The notes beneath the pieces are model-generated. The model saw only the letters and a program-made list of their open reading frames with translations, was not told where the DNA came from and did not search any database. Source: an uncultured Gammaproteobacteria bacterium (GTDB lineage Bacteria > Patescibacteriota > Patescibacteriia > UBA2591 > UBA6264). From it: DNA of 12,259 bases. The position numbers were made by a program, and so were the translations under genes. Shown in pieces: positions 3 to 11,002 of this stretch; positions within the stretch are counted from its first letter, which is position 1; each line of letters opens with the position of its first letter. The stretch covers positions 1 through 12,259 of the forward strand of contig CAZTWG010000010.1 of the NCBI GenBank assembly GCA_964617525.1, in the 5' to 3' direction.

Positions 3-1109
3 ATAGCGGTTAAGCCAAAAAGAGCATCGCGCTTTAAATGGTCAGAAGAAGCTTCTCAGAAATTGATAAGAAAGGGTAAACAAAGGGGCTTTATAACCCA
101 AAATGAAATACTTTATGCTTTCCCTAGAGTTGAAAAATTTTTGGTAGAGTACGAAGAGTTTTTGGAGTCTCTTGAAAAGATGGGAATTCAAATAGTTGAA
201 TCTACCAAAAACTTATTAGGCTCTGAAGGAGAAAAGAAAGAAAAGGGGGGAGAGTTATTCTTTGATTTAACTAAACTTTCAGCCGATTCTATCCAAATGT
301 ATCTTAAAGAAATTGGACATATTCCTTTAATTAACTCAGAAGAAGAGGTGGTTTTGGCTAAAAAAAAGGACGAAGGAGACAAACAATCAGCAATGAGGCT
401 AATAGAAGCCAATTTACGTTTAGTGGTTAGTATTGCTAAAAAATTTGTTGGTTATGGTTTAACTTTTTTAGATTTGATCCAAGAGGGTAATATTGGTTTG
501 TTTAGGGCAGTAGAAAAATATGATTGGAAAAGGGGATATAAGTTTTCTACTTATGCTACTTGGTGGATTAGACAGGCAATTATTAGGTCTTTGGCAGACC
601 AATCTCGTACTATTCGCATTCCAGTTCATGTGGTTGAAATTTTGGGTAAATTCCACGGAGCGGATCGTTATTTATTGCAACAATTGGGACGTCGCCCCAC
701 TCCAGAAGAAATAGCTGCCGAATTAGAGGTTAAAGCTGATGAAGCTAGATATTTGATGAAAATATCACAGGATGTTATTTCTCTTGAAACCACAATTGGA
801 GGGGATGATGATGGCAAAGAATCAGAATTGGTTGATTTTATAGAAGATGTTAAAACAATGGCTCCAGATAGAGCTGCGGCCTTAATGTTGTTGCGCAGAT
901 ATATCAAGGAAATTATAGTTGACCTTTCTCCACGAGAGCAAAAGATCTTGGATATTAGGTTTGGATTATCAGATGGAGTAGCTCATACATTAGAAGAGGT
1001 CGGTAGAGTTTTTAATGTTACTAGAGAAAGGATCAGACAGATTGAGGCTAGGGCACTAGAAAGAATTAGACAATTAAAAGGAATTAAAAAAATTGAAGAT
1101 TATTACTAA
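3..1109 (+). CDS. rpoD: RNA polymerase primary sigma factor (sigma-70/RpoD family), 5' end outside the window
   Basis: The frame of ORF 63..1109 stays open back to nt 3 (..[17 protein letters not shown]..), so the TTG at 63 is an ORF-caller artefact. Region 1.2-like [11 protein letters not shown] and [16 protein letters not shown]. Region 2: [47 protein letters not shown]. Region 3: [12 protein letters not shown]. Region 4.2 HTH: [28 protein letters not shown]. Confidence 0.93.
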
Positions 1110-3007: not shown

Positions 3008-3298
3008 ATGTCAGGTCCCTTTTATTTTAAATTAGGTATATAATAAATATATGGGTCGAGTAGCAAGAATTGATATCGCTAATGAAATATATCATGTTTT
3101 AAATCGTGCCAATGTGCACATGACTGTTTTTAACAAAAATAAAGATTTTAGAGAGTTTGAGGAAATAATAGAAGAATCAATTATTAAAAGCAAACCCTTA
3201 GGAGATAGTAGTTTGGCCAAAAAAGTTGTTGACAAATTTGGGCTAGAGATGACAATGAGAAACCCTGGTAGACCCCAAGAAGGTACCTGACACCTTTT
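3008..3298 (+). mobile_element. Decayed RAYT-type unit: remnant transposase gene flanked by inverted REP-like ends
   Basis: Left end AATGTCAGGTCCC (3007-3019) and right end GGTACCTGACACC (3282-3294) are inverted copies of one motif (core TGTCAGGT / ACCTGACA). The right end also folds locally (AAGGT-ACCTGAC-ACCTT). Confidence 0.6.
3051..3290 (+). pseudogene. Internally deleted IS200-like/REP-associated tyrosine transposase (Y1/HUH family) remnant
   Basis: The N-terminus MGRVARIDIANEIYHVLNRANVHMTVFNKNKDFREFEEII matches the conserved start of COG1943-type transposases (..G.IYHV.NRGN...IF.dd.D...F..). The C-terminus PLGDSSLAKKVVDKFGLEMTMRNPGRPQEG matches their ..GS.EFv.kv....G......r.GRPkk tail. 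The catalytic middle (HUH motif, Tyr helix; roughly 100+ aa) is absent. Confidence 0.6.
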
Positions 3299-3310
3299 TA
3301 TCACATCACT

Positions 3311-4042
3311 ATGAATATGAAAAAGATCATTATTGCTGTATGCTTATTATTTTTATTAATATCGTCCGAGATTGCTTTTGCGGCCGACGCTCTTTATAGA
3401 ATGTTGCATGCAGATGAAATTCAATCGTTCAAGAAAGACCAAGATGCCATGATTGTTGGACAGTTGATTGATAAACAGAGAGATAAGTTCACTGTAAAAG
3501 TTCTAAAGGTAATCAGCGGAAAAGTGAAGTCAGACACAATATTAGTTCCTGATGATTTTAATTATGGTTGGGGTCAAACAGAGTTAACGCCTGCAGTAAA
3601 TGATTTTTGTGTTATGTCCCTCAAGAGGTTTGGCAATTATTATAAAAAAGCATGGGGGATATTTAAGGCCGATAGTGGAGATTACAAGACCTTAAAACTA
3701 ACTACAAAAAATGTTCCATCTTCAGGACTAATGGGAGACTTTGCTTGTATAGAATGGTATGTAAACTCAGGAGGTGCTGAAAACGATTTTTTCTTTAATA
3801 GTGGGACTGCTTATGCAATACGTCCAAACGGTCAGAGCACCCAAATCTATCCTAAATCAACAACGGATGCAGATACTACAACGACAAGTGGTGCAACCCA
3901 AGCTCAGGAGATAACGATAGCAAAAGATAAAATCAGTGATGTAGATTCAAGTTCAAAACTATCTAGCTTTTTGATAGTTGTTATTATTATGATTGGCATA
4001 ATAGCTGTAGTTTATTTGAAACCACGGGAAAAAGTTAAATAG
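3311..4042 (+). CDS. Secreted, C-terminally membrane-anchored hypothetical protein
   Basis: Signal peptide MNMKKIIIAVCLLFLLISSEIAFA-AD, a Thr/Ser-rich linker (TTDADTTTTSGATQAQ), and a C-terminal TM helix FLIVVIIMIGIIAVVYL followed by KPREKVK. No LPxTG motif. Confidence 0.7.
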   Translation: MNMKKIIIAVCLLFLLISSEIAFAADALYRMLHADEIQSFKKDQDAMIVGQLIDKQRDKFTVKVLKVISGKVKSDTILVPDDFNYGWGQTELTPAVNDFCVMSLKRFGNYYKKAWGIFKADSGDYKTLKLTTKNVPSSGLMGDFACIEWYVNSGGAENDFFFNSGTAYAIRPNGQSTQIYPKSTTDADTTTTSGATQAQEITIAKDKISDVDSSSKLSSFLIVVIIMIGIIAVVYLKPREKVK

Positions 4043-4090
4043 ATAAAAACTTCGCCTAACAGCGGACATATGGCTCCATTATGCCTCCCG

Positions 4091-4309
4091 CGAATTCCCT
4101 CACTTTGTCCGTCGAGAACTTTGAAATTAAATATTATATTATAAATATTAATGTAATTTAATTAGAAGAACCTGCTCACTGCGTTCGCAGAACCTTGTAA
4201 TTAAATTTATCTTATAAATATTAATGTAATTTAATTAGAAGAACCTGCTCACTGCGTTCGCAGAACCTTGTAATTAAATTTATCTTATAAATATTAATGT
4301 AATTTAATT
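4091..4309 (+). repeat. Three tandem 73-bp units (4091-4163 diverged; 4164-4236 and 4237-4309 identical) ending at the rbr start codon
   Basis: Unit: AGAAGAACC + core TGCTCACTGCGTTCGCAG + AACCTTGTAATTAAATTTATCTTATAAATATTAATGTAATTTAATT. Period is 73 bp by direct counting. The last unit abuts the ATG at 4310. It contains TTGTAA plus an A/T-rich -10-like block. Confidence 0.9.
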
Positions 4310-4882
4310 ATGGAAAAAACAATAAAAAATTTAACAAAAGCATTTATTGGCGAAAGCCAAGCAAGAAACCGTTATACAATGTATGCTAAAATTGCCAAGA
4401 AAGAAGGTTATGAAGAAATATCAGCTAATTTTGCGTTAACAGCTGACCAAGAAACAGAGCATGCCAAATGGTTAATGAGAATGATTAATCAATTAAAGAA
4501 TGACAATTCAGAGTATGACGAAATTATTGTTGAGGCAGGCGCCCCAACAATATTGAAAGATACGAAAGCAAATTTAAAAGCAGCAATTGCAGGAGAAAAT
4601 TATGAACATACAATTATGTATCCGGAGTTTGCCAACACAGCAGAAGAAGAAGGTTTCTCAGATATTGCGAATAGACTAAGGGCTATTGCTAAAGCAGAAG
4701 TTAATCACGAAGATAGATACAAGAGATTTCTAGAAGCATTAGAAAGTAGTTCAGTGTTTGAAAAGGAAGAAGAAGTGATTTGGGTTTGTCGAAAATGTGG
4801 ATATATTCACAAGGGAAGGCAAGCTCCTGGTAAATGTCCTTCTTGTGGGCATCCTCAGGCATATTTTGAAGTTAAAAAATAA
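4310..4882 (+). CDS. rbr: Rubrerythrin (ferritin-like diiron domain plus C-terminal rubredoxin-like domain)
   Basis: AFIGESQARNRYTMYAKIAKKEGY, ETEHAKW, GENYEHT and AEVNHEDRY (E/ExxH diiron ligands). C-terminal CRKCGYIH..x..CPSCGHP (CxxC-x12-CxxC). Confidence 0.93.
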   Translation: MEKTIKNLTKAFIGESQARNRYTMYAKIAKKEGYEEISANFALTADQETEHAKWLMRMINQLKNDNSEYDEIIVEAGAPTILKDTKANLKAAIAGENYEHTIMYPEFANTAEEEGFSDIANRLRAIAKAEVNHEDRYKRFLEALESSSVFEKEEEVIWVCRKCGYIHKGRQAPGKCPSCGHPQAYFEVKK

Positions 4883-4894
4883 TAATAAGTAAAT

Positions 4895-5347
4895 ATGACC
4901 TACCAACACACCCAAACTGGTCGTTTGATGATATTTGTTTCACTTGCTGTAGTATTATTGTTCGGTAATATTTTATTAAACACAAAAATTAATACTTTTA
5001 TTTTTGTTGAAATGTTTGTAATTCTAGGTATTTTGGTCTCCTTTTGCTCTCTTAATGTAATGATTGATGAAGAATATTTACGAATTAAATTTGGATATGG
5101 TATATTTAAAAAACGTTTCGCCATTAAAGAAATAATTTCAGCAAAAATAGTAAAAAATCATTGGTACTATGGATGGGGAATAAGATATTGTTTAGCGCCT
5201 CCTATGTGGATTTACAATGTTTCTGGTCTTGATGCAGTTGAAATAAAGACACAAGATGGCGAAATATACAGAATAGGCACAGATAAGCCAGAAAATTTAG
5301 AATATGCTATTATTCAGGCAATTAAAGAGTCTAGTAAAAATAAATAA
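4895..5347 (+). CDS. Hypothetical membrane protein (two N-terminal TM helices plus a soluble C-terminal domain)
   Basis: 150-aa ORF starting 12 nt after the rbr stop, so probably co-transcribed. TM helices LMIFVSLAVVLLFGNILL and IFVEMFVILGILVSFCSL. The C-terminal beta-rich domain (EYLRIKFGYGIFKKRFAIKEI..VEIKTQDGEIYRIG) could be bacterial-PH-like; that is tentative. Confidence 0.6.
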   Translation: MTYQHTQTGRLMIFVSLAVVLLFGNILLNTKINTFIFVEMFVILGILVSFCSLNVMIDEEYLRIKFGYGIFKKRFAIKEIISAKIVKNHWYYGWGIRYCLAPPMWIYNVSGLDAVEIKTQDGEIYRIGTDKPENLEYAIIQAIKESSKNK

Positions 5348-5354
5348 CAAAATT

Positions 5355-5426
5355 AGAAGAACCCTTCGCTTCGCTCAGGAACCTTGTAATTAAATTTTAT
5401 CTTATAAATATTAATGTAATTTAATT
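5355..5426 (+). repeat. Fourth, dispersed copy of the 73-bp cassette with a different GC-rich core, ending at the start codon of the 5427 gene
   Basis: AGAAGAACC + core CTTCGCTTCGCTCAGG + AACCTTGTAATTAAATTTTATCTTATAAATATTAATGTAATTTAATT, then ATG at 5427. The flanks are near-identical to 4164-4309 (one extra T); the core is replaced. Confidence 0.88.
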
Positions 5427-6005
5427 ATGAAAAAATTAGATCTTGAAACTGCCATTGAATACCCATTCAATAGAGCAAAAGGTATGTGGAATATTTTGTG
5501 GATATTTTTACCAATCATTGGTTGGTTTGCTTTGGGGGGATATAGCGTTAGGATTGTTAAAGAATTTATTAAAGGGAAATTCAAGCAATTACCTACTTTT
5601 AAATTTAAAAATGATCTAGAATTAGGGTTCATGATGTCTATGAAATTTATTCCTTTTCTAGTGGTATACTTATTACTTCTCTCGGGCGTGGAGAATATTG
5701 CAGATTTTCTGAGCATCAAAAATCAAAAATTGTTAGTAAACTTGGTTGAGGCATTTTTAGGATTATTTATAGTTCCAACTTTAGCTATAAATTTTTTTAA
5801 TAAAGAAACAATAAGTTCTTTGTTTGAGATAGAAATATTGAAGTCTGTTTTTAATAATTTTGATGATTATGTCGTGGCTTTATTAAAGAGTATTTTGTTG
5901 AGTATAATATTTTTGGTTATGTGGATGGTCTTGGTCGGCATACCAGCTGGAACTTTCACGAAAAATATGTTTTTAGCAGATTTTTATAGAAGAAAAGTGA
6001 AATGA
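5427..6005 (+). CDS. DUF4013-like integral membrane protein
   Basis: The N-terminal pattern AIEYPF..(x)..GGYSVRIVKEFIKGKFKQLPTFKF..LELGFMMSMKF resembles the DUF4013 signature (..YP[FM]....GY.VRvi.....g....LP.F.....lf.dGlK). Followed by several TM helices. Confidence 0.55.
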   Translation: MKKLDLETAIEYPFNRAKGMWNILWIFLPIIGWFALGGYSVRIVKEFIKGKFKQLPTFKFKNDLELGFMMSMKFIPFLVVYLLLLSGVENIADFLSIKNQKLLVNLVEAFLGLFIVPTLAINFFNKETISSLFEIEILKSVFNNFDDYVVALLKSILLSIIFLVMWMVLVGIPAGTFTKNMFLADFYRRKVK

Positions 6006-6028: not shown

Positions 6029-6652
6029 ATGAAATCAATAACAGTTTTAAGAATCGTAGAAAATATACTGAGAGGTACTTTGGTATTGGCTATTATATTA
6101 TCTATCATTGGGCATAATTGGATAGTAGTATTAGTATCATTGTTAACCTTAATATTGACTTATTTACCTTTTTGGATAAAAAGCAAGTATAAAATAAATA
6201 TACCATTAGATTTTGAATTTGCTATAATTTTATTTGTATATTTTAGTTTATTTTTAGGGGAAATAAAAGAATTTTACGAATTATTTTGGTGGTGGGACAT
6301 TATGCTTCATACGAGCTCTGCAATTGCTTTGGGGTGCATAGGTTTTATAGTAATGTTTGTTCTTAATAAGACTAATAAAGTTCGCACAAAACCTATATGG
6401 ATTGCAGTGTTTGCATTTTGTTTCGCGCTTTCAATCGGTGCAATTTGGGAAATATGTGAATTTGGTATGGACCAAATTTTTAATATTAATATGCAGAAAT
6501 CTGGATTAACTGATACAATGTGGGATTTAATTATTGATAGCATAGGAGCATTAATCGCTGCGTTAGTCGGTTATGCTTTTATGAAAGGTAAACAAATATC
6601 TTATATTGGCAAATTTATAAAATTATTTATTGAAGATAATCCTGATTTATAG
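6029..6652 (+). CDS. Polytopic membrane protein, YjdF/DUF2238-like (tentative)
   Basis: About 6 TM helices. Motif order WWDIMLH.., WEICEF.., DTMWDLIIDSIGALIAAL parallels YjdF-type D..xH / YELIEW / DTQWDM..AL.GA. Assignment is from memory of motifs only. Confidence 0.45.
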   Translation: MKSITVLRIVENILRGTLVLAIILSIIGHNWIVVLVSLLTLILTYLPFWIKSKYKINIPLDFEFAIILFVYFSLFLGEIKEFYELFWWWDIMLHTSSAIALGCIGFIVMFVLNKTNKVRTKPIWIAVFAFCFALSIGAIWEICEFGMDQIFNINMQKSGLTDTMWDLIIDSIGALIAALVGYAFMKGKQISYIGKFIKLFIEDNPDL

Positions 6653-6734
6653 TGATAAATATAGTCTAAAGAAAATACAGGTTAAATCCTTAGAAATAAA
6701 AAGTGAAATAATTTATGGATAACTTATAGATAAC

Positions 6735-6766
6735 AAAAAACCACCGTTTGAGGTGGTTTTTTGTTT
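6735..6766. terminator. Bidirectional intrinsic terminator between convergent genes
   Basis: AAAAAACCACC-GTTTGA-GGTGGTTTTTTGTTTT: a GC stem CCACC/GGTGG with an A-run on one side and a T-run on the other. It lies 16 nt beyond the csp stop and about 85 nt beyond the 6652 stop. Confidence 0.8.
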
Positions 6767-8976: not shown

Positions 8977-8997
8977 AAAAATTGTTATTTAATAGAA

Positions 8998-9029
8998 TAA
9001 AAAACCGCCATTTATATGGTGGTTTTTTT
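8998..9029 (+). terminator. Intrinsic terminator after the 8134..8976 gene
   Basis: ACCGCCAT (9004-9011) / ATGGTGGT (9016-9023) with one G-U pair, loop TTAT, then TTTTTT. Preceded by an A-run. Confidence 0.75.
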
Positions 9030-9087: not shown

Positions 9088-10080
9088 ATGATTATCCCAA
9101 ATAAATTAGAACTAGGTGATGAAGTAAGAATTATAGCTCCGGCTCGGAGTATGTCTTTGTTGTCCAAAGAAATCATTGCTTTGGCTAAAGAAAAAATAGA
9201 AGCGCAGGGATTCCAAGTTAGTTTTTCAGAACATTGCAATGAGTCGGACATGTTTATGTCTTCATCCATAAAATCAAGAACTGAGGATATCCATCAGGCA
9301 TTTCAAGACAAGAATGTAAAAGCAATCCTAACTGTAATTGGTGGATTTAATTCTAATCAAATTCTTTCCTATTTAGACTACAACTTGATTAAAAATAATC
9401 CTAAGATTTTATGTGGTTATTCGGACATAACAGCACTTTTGAACGCCATAACCGCTAAAACGGAGCTAATTACATATCATGGTCCTCATTTCTCAACATG
9501 GGCGATGGAAAAAGAATTTGAATATAATTTGGAATATTTTCAAAAATGTTTAATAGAAGAAGAAGGATTTGAGATAAAACCATCACTAACCTGGAGTGAT
9601 GATGCTTGGTATATAAACCAGGAAAAAAGAAATTTAATTGAGAACAAAGAAGGATTTATTGTCATCAGTGAAGGGAGGGGAGAGGGGAGAGTTTTGGGCG
9701 GTAATTTATGTACTTTTAATTTATTGCAAGGTACAGAATTTATGCCAAGCCTGACTAATTCAATTTTGTTTATAGAGGACGACAATACAGCTGGAGATTT
9801 ATTTAGCATAGAATTTGATAGAAATCTACAATCACTTATTCATCAACCGAATTTTAATAAAGTAAAGGGCATTGTTATTGGTAAGTTTCAAAAGAAGACT
9901 GACATAAATATTGATAAGCTAAGATATATTATTGATTCAAAGAAAGAATTAAAAGGAATCCCAATCGTCGCAAATGTAAATTTTGGGCACACCAACCCAA
10001 TGATTACTTTTCCTGTTGGGGGCAGGGGAATATTAAATATTGAGAATAATCAAATAGAATTAAAAATTTTAGAGCATTAA
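9088..10080 (+). CDS. LD-carboxypeptidase, peptidase S66 family (MccF/LdcA-like)
   Basis: GDEVRIIAPA.., GGFNSNQIL, nucleophile motif CGYSDITALL (Ser112, nt 9421-9423), acidic LFIEDDN, and FGHTNPMITFPVG (His). This is the Ser-His-Glu triad layout of S66. Confidence 0.85.
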   Translation: MIIPNKLELGDEVRIIAPARSMSLLSKEIIALAKEKIEAQGFQVSFSEHCNESDMFMSSSIKSRTEDIHQAFQDKNVKAILTVIGGFNSNQILSYLDYNLIKNNPKILCGYSDITALLNAITAKTELITYHGPHFSTWAMEKEFEYNLEYFQKCLIEEEGFEIKPSLTWSDDAWYINQEKRNLIENKEGFIVISEGRGEGRVLGGNLCTFNLLQGTEFMPSLTNSILFIEDDNTAGDLFSIEFDRNLQSLIHQPNFNKVKGIVIGKFQKKTDINIDKLRYIIDSKKELKGIPIVANVNFGHTNPMITFPVGGRGILNIENNQIELKILEH

Positions 10081-10093
10081 TAATTAATCTAAT

Positions 10094-11002
10094 ATGAGTA
10101 TTTTTGAGAATAATATTTGCAAAAAATCAGAGGATAGCAGTAGAAAGGAACAGCAAGAATCTGGCTCCTTGCAATCATTCATTGATGTTGTTAGAAAAGA
10201 AACAGCGGAAGTTTTGAGATTATTTAAAACAAAGTTTTTAAGCAAGAATGAAGGAATGATTTCTATAACCTCTGATGCTTTAGAGAAAAAAATATTTGAT
10301 ATAGTTGACGTAATTCGTAATGTTAAAATTAAGTCATTGGCAAAAAATAAAGATTCTCAAAAAGAAAATTCTTTACAAATAATTCTTTCCATATCCCGCC
10401 ACGATACAATAAACAAATTAGTATCTTTAATTTCTGCTATCCATCTTTTAAAAGAACATGATAATGAAGGTAACAAAGCTATCTCTGAAGAGGTTCAAAC
10501 AAATATTGCTGGGATAGAAAAAATACTTGAAAAAACAGAAGAAACAGCGCATACCATAATATCTGGAGAATCGCTTATACATAATGTGCGACAGGTGGCA
10601 GAAGACATAAAAGAAACCTATGATAACTTAAAGGTTAAAATAAATTATGATTGTCATGATAAGTGCTTAATCAAAACTAATGGTTCTTTGTATTCAGTTT
10701 TTGATAATATTTTAGCTAATGCTATCCGACACGGTCATGCGACAGAAGCTGAGATAAATATCATAGAAAAAAATAATAAAGATCTTTTAATAAAGATTAA
10801 AAATAATGGGGAAAAACTCAAAAGGGGAAGCGAAGAAAAGATATTCGAGAAAGGCTTTAAATCTAAAGAAACGGGGAACACAGGATTAGGACTTGCATTA
10901 ATAAGGGACGACATTGAAATAAGCCATGGAGAAATTAACGCCGAAAATACAAAAGATGGTGTAGAGTTTATTATTAAGTTTCCATTACTACAGAGTAAAT
11001 AA
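10094..11002 (+). CDS. Cytoplasmic histidine kinase lacking a recognisable sensor or TM domain
   Basis: H-box SISRHDTINKL (His103, nt 10400-10402). N-box LYSVFDNILANAIRHG. G1 IKNNGEKL. F-box IFEKGF. G2 GNTGLGLALI. No hydrophobic helices. It starts 13 nt after the S66 gene stop. No response regulator in the window. Confidence 0.8.
   Translation: MSIFENNICKKSEDSSRKEQQESGSLQSFIDVVRKETAEVLRLFKTKFLSKNEGMISITSDALEKKIFDIVDVIRNVKIKSLAKNKDSQKENSLQIILSISRHDTINKLVSLISAIHLLKEHDNEGNKAISEEVQTNIAGIEKILEKTEETAHTIISGESLIHNVRQVAEDIKETYDNLKVKINYDCHDKCLIKTNGSLYSVFDNILANAIRHGHATEAEINIIEKNNKDLLIKIKNNGEKLKRGSEEKIFEKGFKSKETGNTGLGLALIRDDIEISHGEINAENTKDGVEFIIKFPLLQSK

Follow-up and report, generated by a model that had tools for sequence, protein, structure and literature searches.

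We favor, with fair confidence, the view that positions 5353–5426 of the 12,259-nt stretch of DNA analyzed here (the window) are one unit of a dispersed and often tandem promoter-like cassette repeat of Patescibacteria, in which the variable core is a hairpin allele and the copies recombine with one another and shuffle genes. The unit combines three parts: a short GC-rich hairpin (HP1), whose stem sequence is free to vary provided that it still pairs and that the TC/TC internal loop and the T-N-C triloop persist; an invariant box GAACCTTGAAATTAAAT carrying a -35-like TTGAAA; and an AT-rich inverted repeat (IR2) framing a TATA-rich segment, which would supply a -10 hexamer 16–18 nt downstream. 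As the unit at 5353–5426 ends at the start codon of a DUF4013 membrane-protein gene, it would drive this gene, and probably also the following ORF207, by a sigma-70-type promoter with a very short leader lacking a Shine-Dalgarno sequence. The window is the complete contig C10 of genome G000, an assembly of 597 kb in 77 contigs (95% complete, 33% G+C).

The anatomy of the copy becomes clear when it is compared with two identical sister units of 73 nt each that precede the rubrerythrin gene (rbr) on the same strand (4162–4309, plus strand). The 5' arm TTAGAAGAACC (5353–5363, plus strand) forms the foot of the hairpin, its AAG pairing with the CTT of 5383–5385 in the extended fold, and is found unchanged in the rbr units at 4162–4172 and 4235–4245; its family consensus is ATAAGAACC, and positions −3 to +5 of the conservation profile are 85 to 100% conserved. 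The first-pass annotation placed the start at 5355, the A of AGAAGAACC, and the arm itself begins at 5353. The core CTTCGCTTCGCTCAGG (5364–5379) is followed by the 47-nt 3' arm AACCTTGTAATTAAATTTTATCTTATAAATATTAATGTAATTTAATT (5380–5426), which matches that of the rbr units except for one T indel (97.9% over 48 nt). Both arms are thus common to the two loci and enclose different GC-rich cores, as first annotated, and the cassette is also flush with both ATGs, at 5427 for DUF4013 and at 4310 for rbr. HP1 occupies 17 nt (5363–5379; CCT-TC-GC-TTC-GC-TC-AGG), with base pairs 5363–5379, 5364–5378, 5365–5377, 5368–5374, and 5369–5373, a TC/TC internal loop, and a triloop at 5370–5372. The invariant box, here GAACCTTGTAATTAAAT (5379–5395, plus strand), holds the -35-like hexamer TTGTAA (5384–5389; family consensus TTGAAA). 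IR2 extends over 5388–5426 with arms AATTAAAT (5388–5395) and ATTTAATT (5419–5426) around a 23-nt TATA-rich insert (5396–5418), in which family geometry predicts the -10 hexamer AATATT (5407–5412, plus strand), 17 nt after TTGTAA. The rbr core is TGCTCACTGCGTTCGCAG, and the hairpins of the rbr units are a 19-nt allele, CTGC-TC-AC-TGC-GT-TC-GCAG (4172–4190 and 4245–4263). A diverged third rbr unit with the core CTCACTTTGTCCGTCGAG ends at 4161; its hairpin (approximately 4096–4116), box (4116–4132), and 3' arm (to 4161) were placed by hand. No Rfam family was matched at 5353–5426.

To compare the cores, they were listed from three relatives and then from 154 copies, which yielded 100 distinct cores. 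Throughout the 154 copies, the cores are self-complementary right up to the arms, and the cores compared in the window share the scheme stem / TC / RC-NNN-GY / TC / stem. Short forms include CTGC-TTC-GCAG, CTGAC-TTC-GTCAG, CTGGC-TTC-GCCAG, CTACC-TTC-GGTAG, and CTCGCC-TTC-GGCGAG, and the long forms, to which the rbr units and the DUF4013 copy belong, add the conserved TC/TC internal loop and a 2-bp inner stem. Compensated variants such as CTAC...GTAG, CTGT...ACAG, and CTT...AAG are also present. The outer stem closing at the arm boundary has a mean length of 3.45 bp versus 0.61 bp in shuffled cores, with a maximum of 1.05 over 1000 shuffles. Three gapless alignments were then built by length class and compared with 500 shuffles each and with slid controls. 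The paired cells amounted to 91.1%, 98.5%, and 92.8% of the respective class alignments, and two to three pairs per class had changed on both sides (for example, UA 7 / CG 6 and GC 12 / AU 11). The observed pairing or covariation score was reached by 0/500 shuffles in each class, and the slid controls collapsed. The class of the 5363–5379 hairpin is alignment A2, the one with 98.5% of cells paired, in which pair 7–21 is UA 7 / CG 6 and pair 11–17 is GC 10 / AU 2; the 19-nt allele of the rbr units belongs to alignment A3. The pairing and covariation in these class alignments indicate that the rbr core and the DUF4013 core are two alleles of one hairpin and not unrelated inserts. The first-pass annotation had described the cores as differing completely and as unconstrained, and neither description survives the common scheme and the covarying stem. 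It had also seen no convincing hairpin, which remains true of single-sequence thermodynamics and fails against the comparative data. Its suggestion that aligned copies be examined for discrete core classes was fruitful, as the classes are few, recurrent, and common to several genera.

The cassette is abundant both within the genome and across its relatives. The 17-mer GAACCTTGnAATTAAAT of the box occurs 22 times in G000 in the scan that allowed at most one mismatch, 24 copies of the box were counted in this genome overall, and the search for further genomic copies that had been proposed from the sequence revealed at least 28 arm-core-arm modules in 23 arrays. Many of the arrays lie at contig ends, implying that the repeat breaks the assembly. 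Ten cassette copies in G000 are flush with the ATG of a long ORF, and their products were identified by reading as ThrRS (thrS), EF-Ts (tsf), a UMP-kinase-like protein, a 5'-3' exonuclease, a dTDP-glucose-dehydratase-like protein (rfbB-like), RNase J, a DUF3160-like protein, rubrerythrin, and DUF4013. Approximately 14 of the 19 G000 arrays with context point at a gene, and 4 to 5 are reversed. With the same tolerance, the 17-mer was found in 18/41 related genomes, with 23 copies in one same-genus genome and 0 in the other (G001), and with 40 (G004), 49, and 19 copies in genomes of two other genera. A reversed control pattern gave 0 matches in all 41 genomes, which together with this abundance shows that the shared arms are not due to chance. 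Moreover, the exact full arm-core-box pattern is present in at least 115 public contigs labeled Patescibacteria, Parcubacteria, or Minisyncoccales.

Several forms depart from the full cassette. Two variants were noted at G000 C2:13929–13975, G000 C50:3252, and locus L027 of G004. In one, an AT-rich inverted repeat encloses a terminator-like GC stem-loop, AATTAAATACTCG-TTA-CGAGTATTTAATT (C2:13929–13975), and in the other, a hairpin-less head AAGC-AAA-GCTT replaces AGAACC-hairpin-GAACCTT. In addition, hairpin-only modules, ATAAGAACC-stem-loop-GAACCTTGG, are arranged head to tail with a 28 to 34 nt period and without the promoter part in runs at G000 contig ends (C17:9756–9806, C36, C16:1–185, C48, and C54:35–125).

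The copy at 5353–5426 is a mosaic. In its left part, comprising the arm and the hairpin, a single loop base separates it from the copies on contigs C11 and C24 (counted from the sequences; the script value of 3/29 includes two padded end positions), compared with 9/29 positions that separate it from the rbr units. On the right, the relation is reversed: the rbr units are one T indel away, and C24/C11 show 9 to 12 differences. Because the left part resembles C11/C24 and the 3' arm resembles the rbr units, the copy is a recombinant, and the sequences place the exchange point near the shared GAACCTTG box.

Related strains differ at the same places. In a near-identical strain, represented by a metagenome contig with six neighbor proteins 99 to 100% identical, the DUF4013 unit is duplicated and the second rbr unit is chimeric. 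In the same-genus genome G002, the array before rbr is flush with the ATG and its proximal hairpin belongs to the class of the DUF4013 copy. No cassette precedes rbr in G001 (same genus), G003, G004, or G012, and G004 has an ordinary terminator and promoter at that position. The stretch that follows rbr varies in gene content among G000, G001, and G002. Most DUF4013 relatives in metagenome contigs (61–71% identity) have the cassette flush at the ATG, with hairpins of several classes or a hairpin-less variant, AAGC-AGA-GCTT. One pair of contigs provides an empty site, with the rbr stop, 17 nt, and the DUF4013 ATG, and a filled site, with the same flank and the cassette in an 87-nt intergenic stretch. 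Across the metagenome contigs, rbr, DUF4013, and ORF150 occur together in five orders, with rbr duplicated once, and an identical 3' arm stands ahead of rbr in several of them and ahead of DUF4013 in one other. The first reading of the element as modular or mobile rather than a product of simple drift is supported by the mosaic, the change in unit number, and the empty and filled sites, with its promoter part being predicted. As a separate observation, the slot after rbr/ORF145 in locus L175 of G002 (oriented 3075–3534) holds small ORFs of 71 and 79 aa, which, as a guess from their size and arrangement, could be a toxin–antitoxin pair.

The downstream part of the cassette was characterized across the same 154 copies. 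The sequence AATTAAAW is matched downstream by WTTTAATT in 141/154 copies (8-nt arms, at most one mismatch), and the innermost pair of this IR2 covaries (T:A 62, C:G 17, A:T 14). The IR2 loop is 4 nt in a short type or 23 to 24 nt in a long type, as at 5396–5418. In the short type, the usual solution is TTGAAA-17-TATAAN, and the mean best sigma-70 score is 9.2/12 on the sense strand versus 6.6 on the antisense strand and 6.6 in shuffled sequences. In the long type, a score of at least 9/12 is reached by 83/119 copies on the sense strand versus 24 on the antisense strand and 29 in shuffled sequences, with the -10 inside the insert. Judged by these scores, the promoter-likeness of the cassette family is directional. 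For the copy at 5353–5426, we infer a transcription start at approximately 5418–5420 and a leader of approximately 8 nt without a Shine-Dalgarno sequence. A Shine-Dalgarno role for the AAGG/AATG in the 3' arm was rejected, as in G004 its distance to the ATG varies between 10 nt and over 20 nt, and it is also ruled out by a genome that does not use such signals.

Several observations weigh against reading the cassette simply as a promoter with a hairpin allele. The folding energies of single copies are not significant (z −0.5 to −2). At 5353–5426, TTGTAA-17-AATATT scores 8/12 when counted by hand, the consensus scan with its threshold of 9/12 flags neither this copy nor the two identical rbr units, and the promoter-like matches in the region equal the shuffle expectation. 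An alternative TATAAA box at 5403–5408 has a spacer of just 13 nt from TTGTAA. Family-wide, 31 units lie in (+,+) and 31 in (−,−) orientation between co-directional genes among 83 units, and reversed copies frequently abut the stop codon of a gene on the antisense strand. Given both orientations between co-directional genes, the cassette cannot in every case serve the right-hand gene as its promoter. Furthermore, a promoter alone explains the covariation of neither HP1 nor IR2. Either a second function is exerted from the other strand, such as transcription stop or insulation, or the hairpins serve the spread of the repeat.

The closest described system, and in our view the best analogy, is that of the PeSL cassettes of T4-type phages, in which a sigma-70-like promoter and a stem-loop extend up to the start codons of accessory genes and the copies recombine, leading to insertion, deletion, and replacement (Arbiol et al. 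2010, PMC2839356; Comeau et al. 2014, PMC4122927). Likewise, the Patescibacteria cassette is a short promoter-like and stem-loop repeat reaching the start codon of many unrelated, often accessory genes, and relatives differ by gene insertion, deletion, replacement, and reordering exactly at the cassettes, with chimeric cassettes that would arise by recombination. However, the host is a Patescibacteria chromosome with rpoD, a tRNA, and housekeeping genes rather than a phage hyperplastic region, and the cassette has no Shine-Dalgarno part. Its hairpin lies upstream of the -35, whereas the PeSL stem-loop lies between or over the boxes; it is small, keeps conserved TC/TC mismatches and, when the antisense strand is read, loops of the GNA type, and does not resemble a terminator. 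Unlike PeSL, the cassette also has a second, AT-rich inverted repeat framing the -10 region and occurs in tandem arrays and in both orientations. By this likeness, the cassette would be a PeSL-like kind residing in a cellular genome, set apart by its host, by where its hairpin lies and how it is built, and by its second inverted repeat. The loose category of putative mobile promoters can likewise accommodate it; these are highly similar upstream sequences before unrelated genes, common across genera (Matus-Garcia, Nijveen & van Passel 2012; PMC3575422). Unlike that catalogue, which offers no mechanism and includes no such Patescibacteria genomes, the present comparison resolves structure, alleles, and strain polymorphisms.

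In the favored reading, the swapped core at 5353–5426 is a different allele of the hairpin and would have been placed beside an rbr-type 3' arm by recombination or gene conversion in or near GAACCTTG. Homologous recombination between copies may also duplicate units, insert and delete cassettes at gene starts, and permute the cassette-headed rbr, DUF4013, and ORF150 between related strains, as PeSL does in T4-type phages.

Part of this pattern could also be produced by a selfish, non-autonomous mobile element of the REP, MITE, or Correia type, whose strand-asymmetric hairpin would be recognized as single-stranded DNA and moved by an enzyme acting in trans, with the promoter part being a passenger or incidental and the copies surviving where they are harmless or help expression. 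We regard this as possible but rather unlikely. It would account for the two orientations relative to neighbors, the precise insertion seen by comparing the empty and filled sites, the patchy distribution among genera down to the absence from same-genus G001, and the tandem runs of hairpin-only modules. The conservation of structure rather than sequence in HP1, with strand-specific irregularities, also recalls IS200/IS605 ends, REPs, and attC sites, and the conserved ATAA...ATAA ends may be a target duplication. However, the ends ATAAGAACC... and ...TTTAATTATAA, with ATAA at both, are not inverted repeats, so the cassette lacks the terminal inverted repeats of a MITE, and no clear target-site duplication is seen in the single empty/filled pair. 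The orientation of most G000 arrays toward a gene and the 10 copies flush at an ATG likewise speak against this reading, and the mosaics and the identical arms before different genes fit copy-to-copy recombination. Nor does any candidate enzyme track the repeat, since G004 has 40 copies and 0 Y1_Tnp genes and G001 has 0 copies and 4 Y1_Tnp genes. On these counts, and because the RAYT-like gene of G000 has a different REP of its own, REP/RAYT was rejected as the system of the cassette.

Like REP/BIME, REPIN, and Correia (CREE) elements, the cassettes are small intergenic palindromes with conserved imperfections, dispersed and sometimes clustered. Correia elements can supply promoters, and REP can supply RNA 3' hairpins. 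Unlike REP/REPIN, the cassette has neither a GTAG head nor inverted pairs; its flanks are direct AGAAC...AGAAC repeats, and its arrays run head to tail. The Y1 gene on contig C13 of G000, which is RAYT-like, is flanked by its own REP, built on a different hairpin, CTGACCCGTCGGGTCAG. This locus (C13, approximately 9690–10590) contains a 246-codon Y1-transposase gene and three REP-like hairpins of its own, AAAACTGACCCG(T/A)CGGGTCAGTTATAG.

The irregularities of HP1 point to one of the two strands. TC/TC makes up 43 internal loops, and the triloop is T-N-C or T-N-T in 71 of the 81 regular hairpins, with a C-G closing pair in 65/81. Read on the antisense strand, these features become tandem G.A/A.G mismatches and GNA or ANA triloops: 71/81 loops are purine-N-A, of which 48 are GNA, and the loops include GAA (29), GTA (9), GGA (6), and GCA (4). 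At 5363–5379, the antisense sequence is CCTGA-GCGAAGC-GAAGG, which corresponds to a GNA mini-hairpin flanked by tandem G.A pairs, and 5368–5374 (GCTTCGC) is GCGAAGC on that strand, an instance of the d(GCGNAGC) motif. Pairing of the arms is likewise better there, as AAG-GUU-[stem]-GUU-CUU gains two G.U pairs. Among 125 copies, RNA parameters give the antisense strand the more stable fold in 116 (−8.0 versus −4.3 kcal/mol), and DNA parameters do so in 104, where the gap is small (−2.44 versus −2.08 kcal/mol). The structured strand is probably the antisense one, against which stand the DNA parameters of the two window copies, which do not favor it; a wobble-asymmetry test for the structured strand was neutral (16 versus 20).

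The d(GCGNAGC) sequence forms an extraordinarily stable DNA mini-hairpin with a sheared G.A pair, occurs at the phage G4 and ssiA priming sites and in the hairpin promoters of the phage N4 virion RNA polymerase, and has a stability that conventional thermodynamic models miss (PMC13037366). Like these mini-hairpins, the antisense strand of HP1 carries GCGAAGC or a GNA variant in AT-rich DNA beside a transcription signal. Unlike them, HP1 lies upstream of a sigma-70-type -35 and not at −11 of a single-stranded promoter, and whereas the known sites are linked to a polymerase or primase, the likeness of HP1 to them is drawn from base sequence. It is conceivable, though we consider it unlikely, that HP1 is a strand-specific single-stranded-DNA signal, made of the GNA mini-hairpin, sheared G.A pairs, and GGTTC flanks, that is read by Patescibacteria machinery such as a recombinase, a primase, or a repair system. 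If so, the cassettes would work much like an integron, though one without an integrase, and would carry promoters, alone or together with a gene as in the cassette with DUF4013, within and between ultra-small genomes. The attC sites of integrons have inverted core sites (RYYYAAC...GTTRRRY) and extrahelical bases and are served by an integron integrase. In contrast, the flanks of the cassette, as read from the sequence, are direct and not inverted repeats, and its size is far below that of attC.

The same strand preference could reflect a role in RNA, in which HP1 would act in an antisense transcript as a stop or a stabilizing 3' hairpin followed by GUUCUUAU, so that the cassette would promote transcription one way and terminate or insulate against it the other way. 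HP1 would then end divergent transcripts from the symmetric AT-rich promoter or, in reversed copies, transcripts of genes on the other strand. The more stable RNA folds of the antisense strand, aided by G.U pairs in GUU/GUU and by tandem G.A, are consistent with this, as are the −10 kcal/mol of the extended antisense fold at 5353–5426 and the fact that in half of the family copies a gene on the antisense strand has its stop codon immediately before the cassette. In addition, the IR2 slot is sometimes occupied by a GC stem-loop with T-rich flanks (C2:13929), and PeSL stem-loops are proven terminators (PMC2839356). We nevertheless find this role doubtful. The stems are short (4 to 6 bp plus mismatches), the fold energies do not differ significantly from shuffles (z −1.4 to −1.95), the U-tract is interrupted, and the wobble test gives no strand bias. 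A scan of both strands for intrinsic terminators (a T-run behind a GC-rich stem of 5 bp or more) found none at 5353–5426, whereas it did find the one at 6732–6765, and the organism owns ordinary strong terminators.

The first-pass annotation had further proposed that the cassette defines a regulon of rbr and DUF4013, and a shared operator or promoter joining rbr with DUF4013/ORF207 in an oxidative-stress response, with the core as a specificity module, would indeed explain the near-identical arms before both genes and the conserved neighborhood of rbr, DUF4013, and ORF150. The AT-rich part also bears what we take to be a loose resemblance to Fur/PerR-type boxes. This idea is highly improbable and was not borne out: the same cassette stands before thrS, tsf, RNase J, the 5'-3' exonuclease, the sugar dehydratase, and others, and this presence before many housekeeping genes rules out a dedicated regulon. 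Moreover, the cassette is missing before rbr in the four relatives named above, the rbr loci of G000 and G002 show that one core class can take the place of the other, and core covariation means base pairing rather than a sequence read by a protein. Finally, a guide-RNA array (a TIGR-Tas stem-loop or CRISPR-like array), suggested superficially by conserved arms around variable cores of 9 to 24 nt, by the 28 to 34 nt tandem hairpin runs at contig ends, and by the variable-palindrome arrays among the TIGR systems of parasitic bacteria (PMC12045711), is hardly credible and was rejected, as its architecture, in which conserved repeats alternate with variable spacers of 8 to 12 nt, differs, no Nop-domain (Tas) gene was found in five cassette-rich genomes (G000, G002, G004, G014, and G019), the variable parts are self-complementary and fall into few recurrent classes across genera, the sequence between hairpins is conserved rather than variable, and the copies are dispersed before genes.

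Patescibacteria account for much of bacterial diversity and do not grow in pure culture, and their transcription signals are essentially unmapped. A portable promoter cassette, if real, would help to annotate gene starts, as many start codons would be fixed by the cassette edge, and a recognizable cassette would also be useful for predicting highly expressed genes and for building expression tools. The cassette explains assembly breaks at intergenic repeats in such genomes. It also shows that repeated modules of putative regulatory function can be sites at which tiny, streamlined genomes rearrange their genes, as documented so far mainly for T4-type phages. A covarying hairpin with an antisense GCGAAGC/G.A signature beside a predicted promoter is itself a structure that merits attention.

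The cassette lies between ORF150 (4895–5347, plus strand), whose stop codon is located 5 nt before it, and the DUF4013 membrane-protein gene (5427–6005, plus strand), whose start codon abuts it. ORF207 (6029–6652, plus strand) is the second gene after the cassette and is followed by the intrinsic terminator at 6732–6765. The flush ATGs are the real starts: between them and the conserved motifs of the proteins, YPF in DUF4013 and AFIGESQARNRY in rubrerythrin, there is no other start codon. DUF4013 is an accessory gene: no ortholog was found among 40 relatives, and its relatives turned up only in metagenome contigs. In same-genus G001, which is without DUF4013, the ORF207 ortholog comes after a HIT-family gene. 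In related metagenome contigs (loci L182–L189), rbr, DUF4013, ORF150, and often ORF207 are kept neighbors, and this kept neighborhood makes a functional link among rbr, DUF4013, and ORF150 plausible without resting on the cassette. A small-membrane-protein-like open stretch was also noted in a 384-nt spacer between DUF4013 and ORF150 in L182, L188, and L189.

The host is a small-genome bacterium, as no TBP gene was found in G000 and two sigma-70 region-2 genes are present, one of which is the rpoD-like sigma factor ORF at window 3–1109, open at the contig start. An archaeal BRE/TATA reading of the AT-rich part was rejected on the same evidence. A Shine-Dalgarno core at −20 to −5 precedes 3.2% of the 377 long ORFs of G000, below the shuffled expectation; upstream regions are 85 to 90% A+T, and T occupies −1 in 76%. 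Translation initiation in this genome thus appears to proceed without Shine-Dalgarno pairing. A tRNA lies at 1167–1239 (Rfam, 70 bits), whose anticodon loop CUGUUAA was read as GUU, Asn. Canonical intrinsic terminators, AAAAAACCACC...GGTGGTTTTTT, are present at 6732–6765 and 8995–9026, and G000 therefore employs ordinary hairpin-plus-U terminators, unlike the cassette hairpin. Another GC-rich stretch, cttcgcctaacagcggacatatggctccattatgcctcccgcgaattcc (window 4050–4115), lies between the stop of the ORF at 3311–4042 and the diverged first rbr unit; the sister strain (L181) carries it unchanged, and Rfam gave no match to it.

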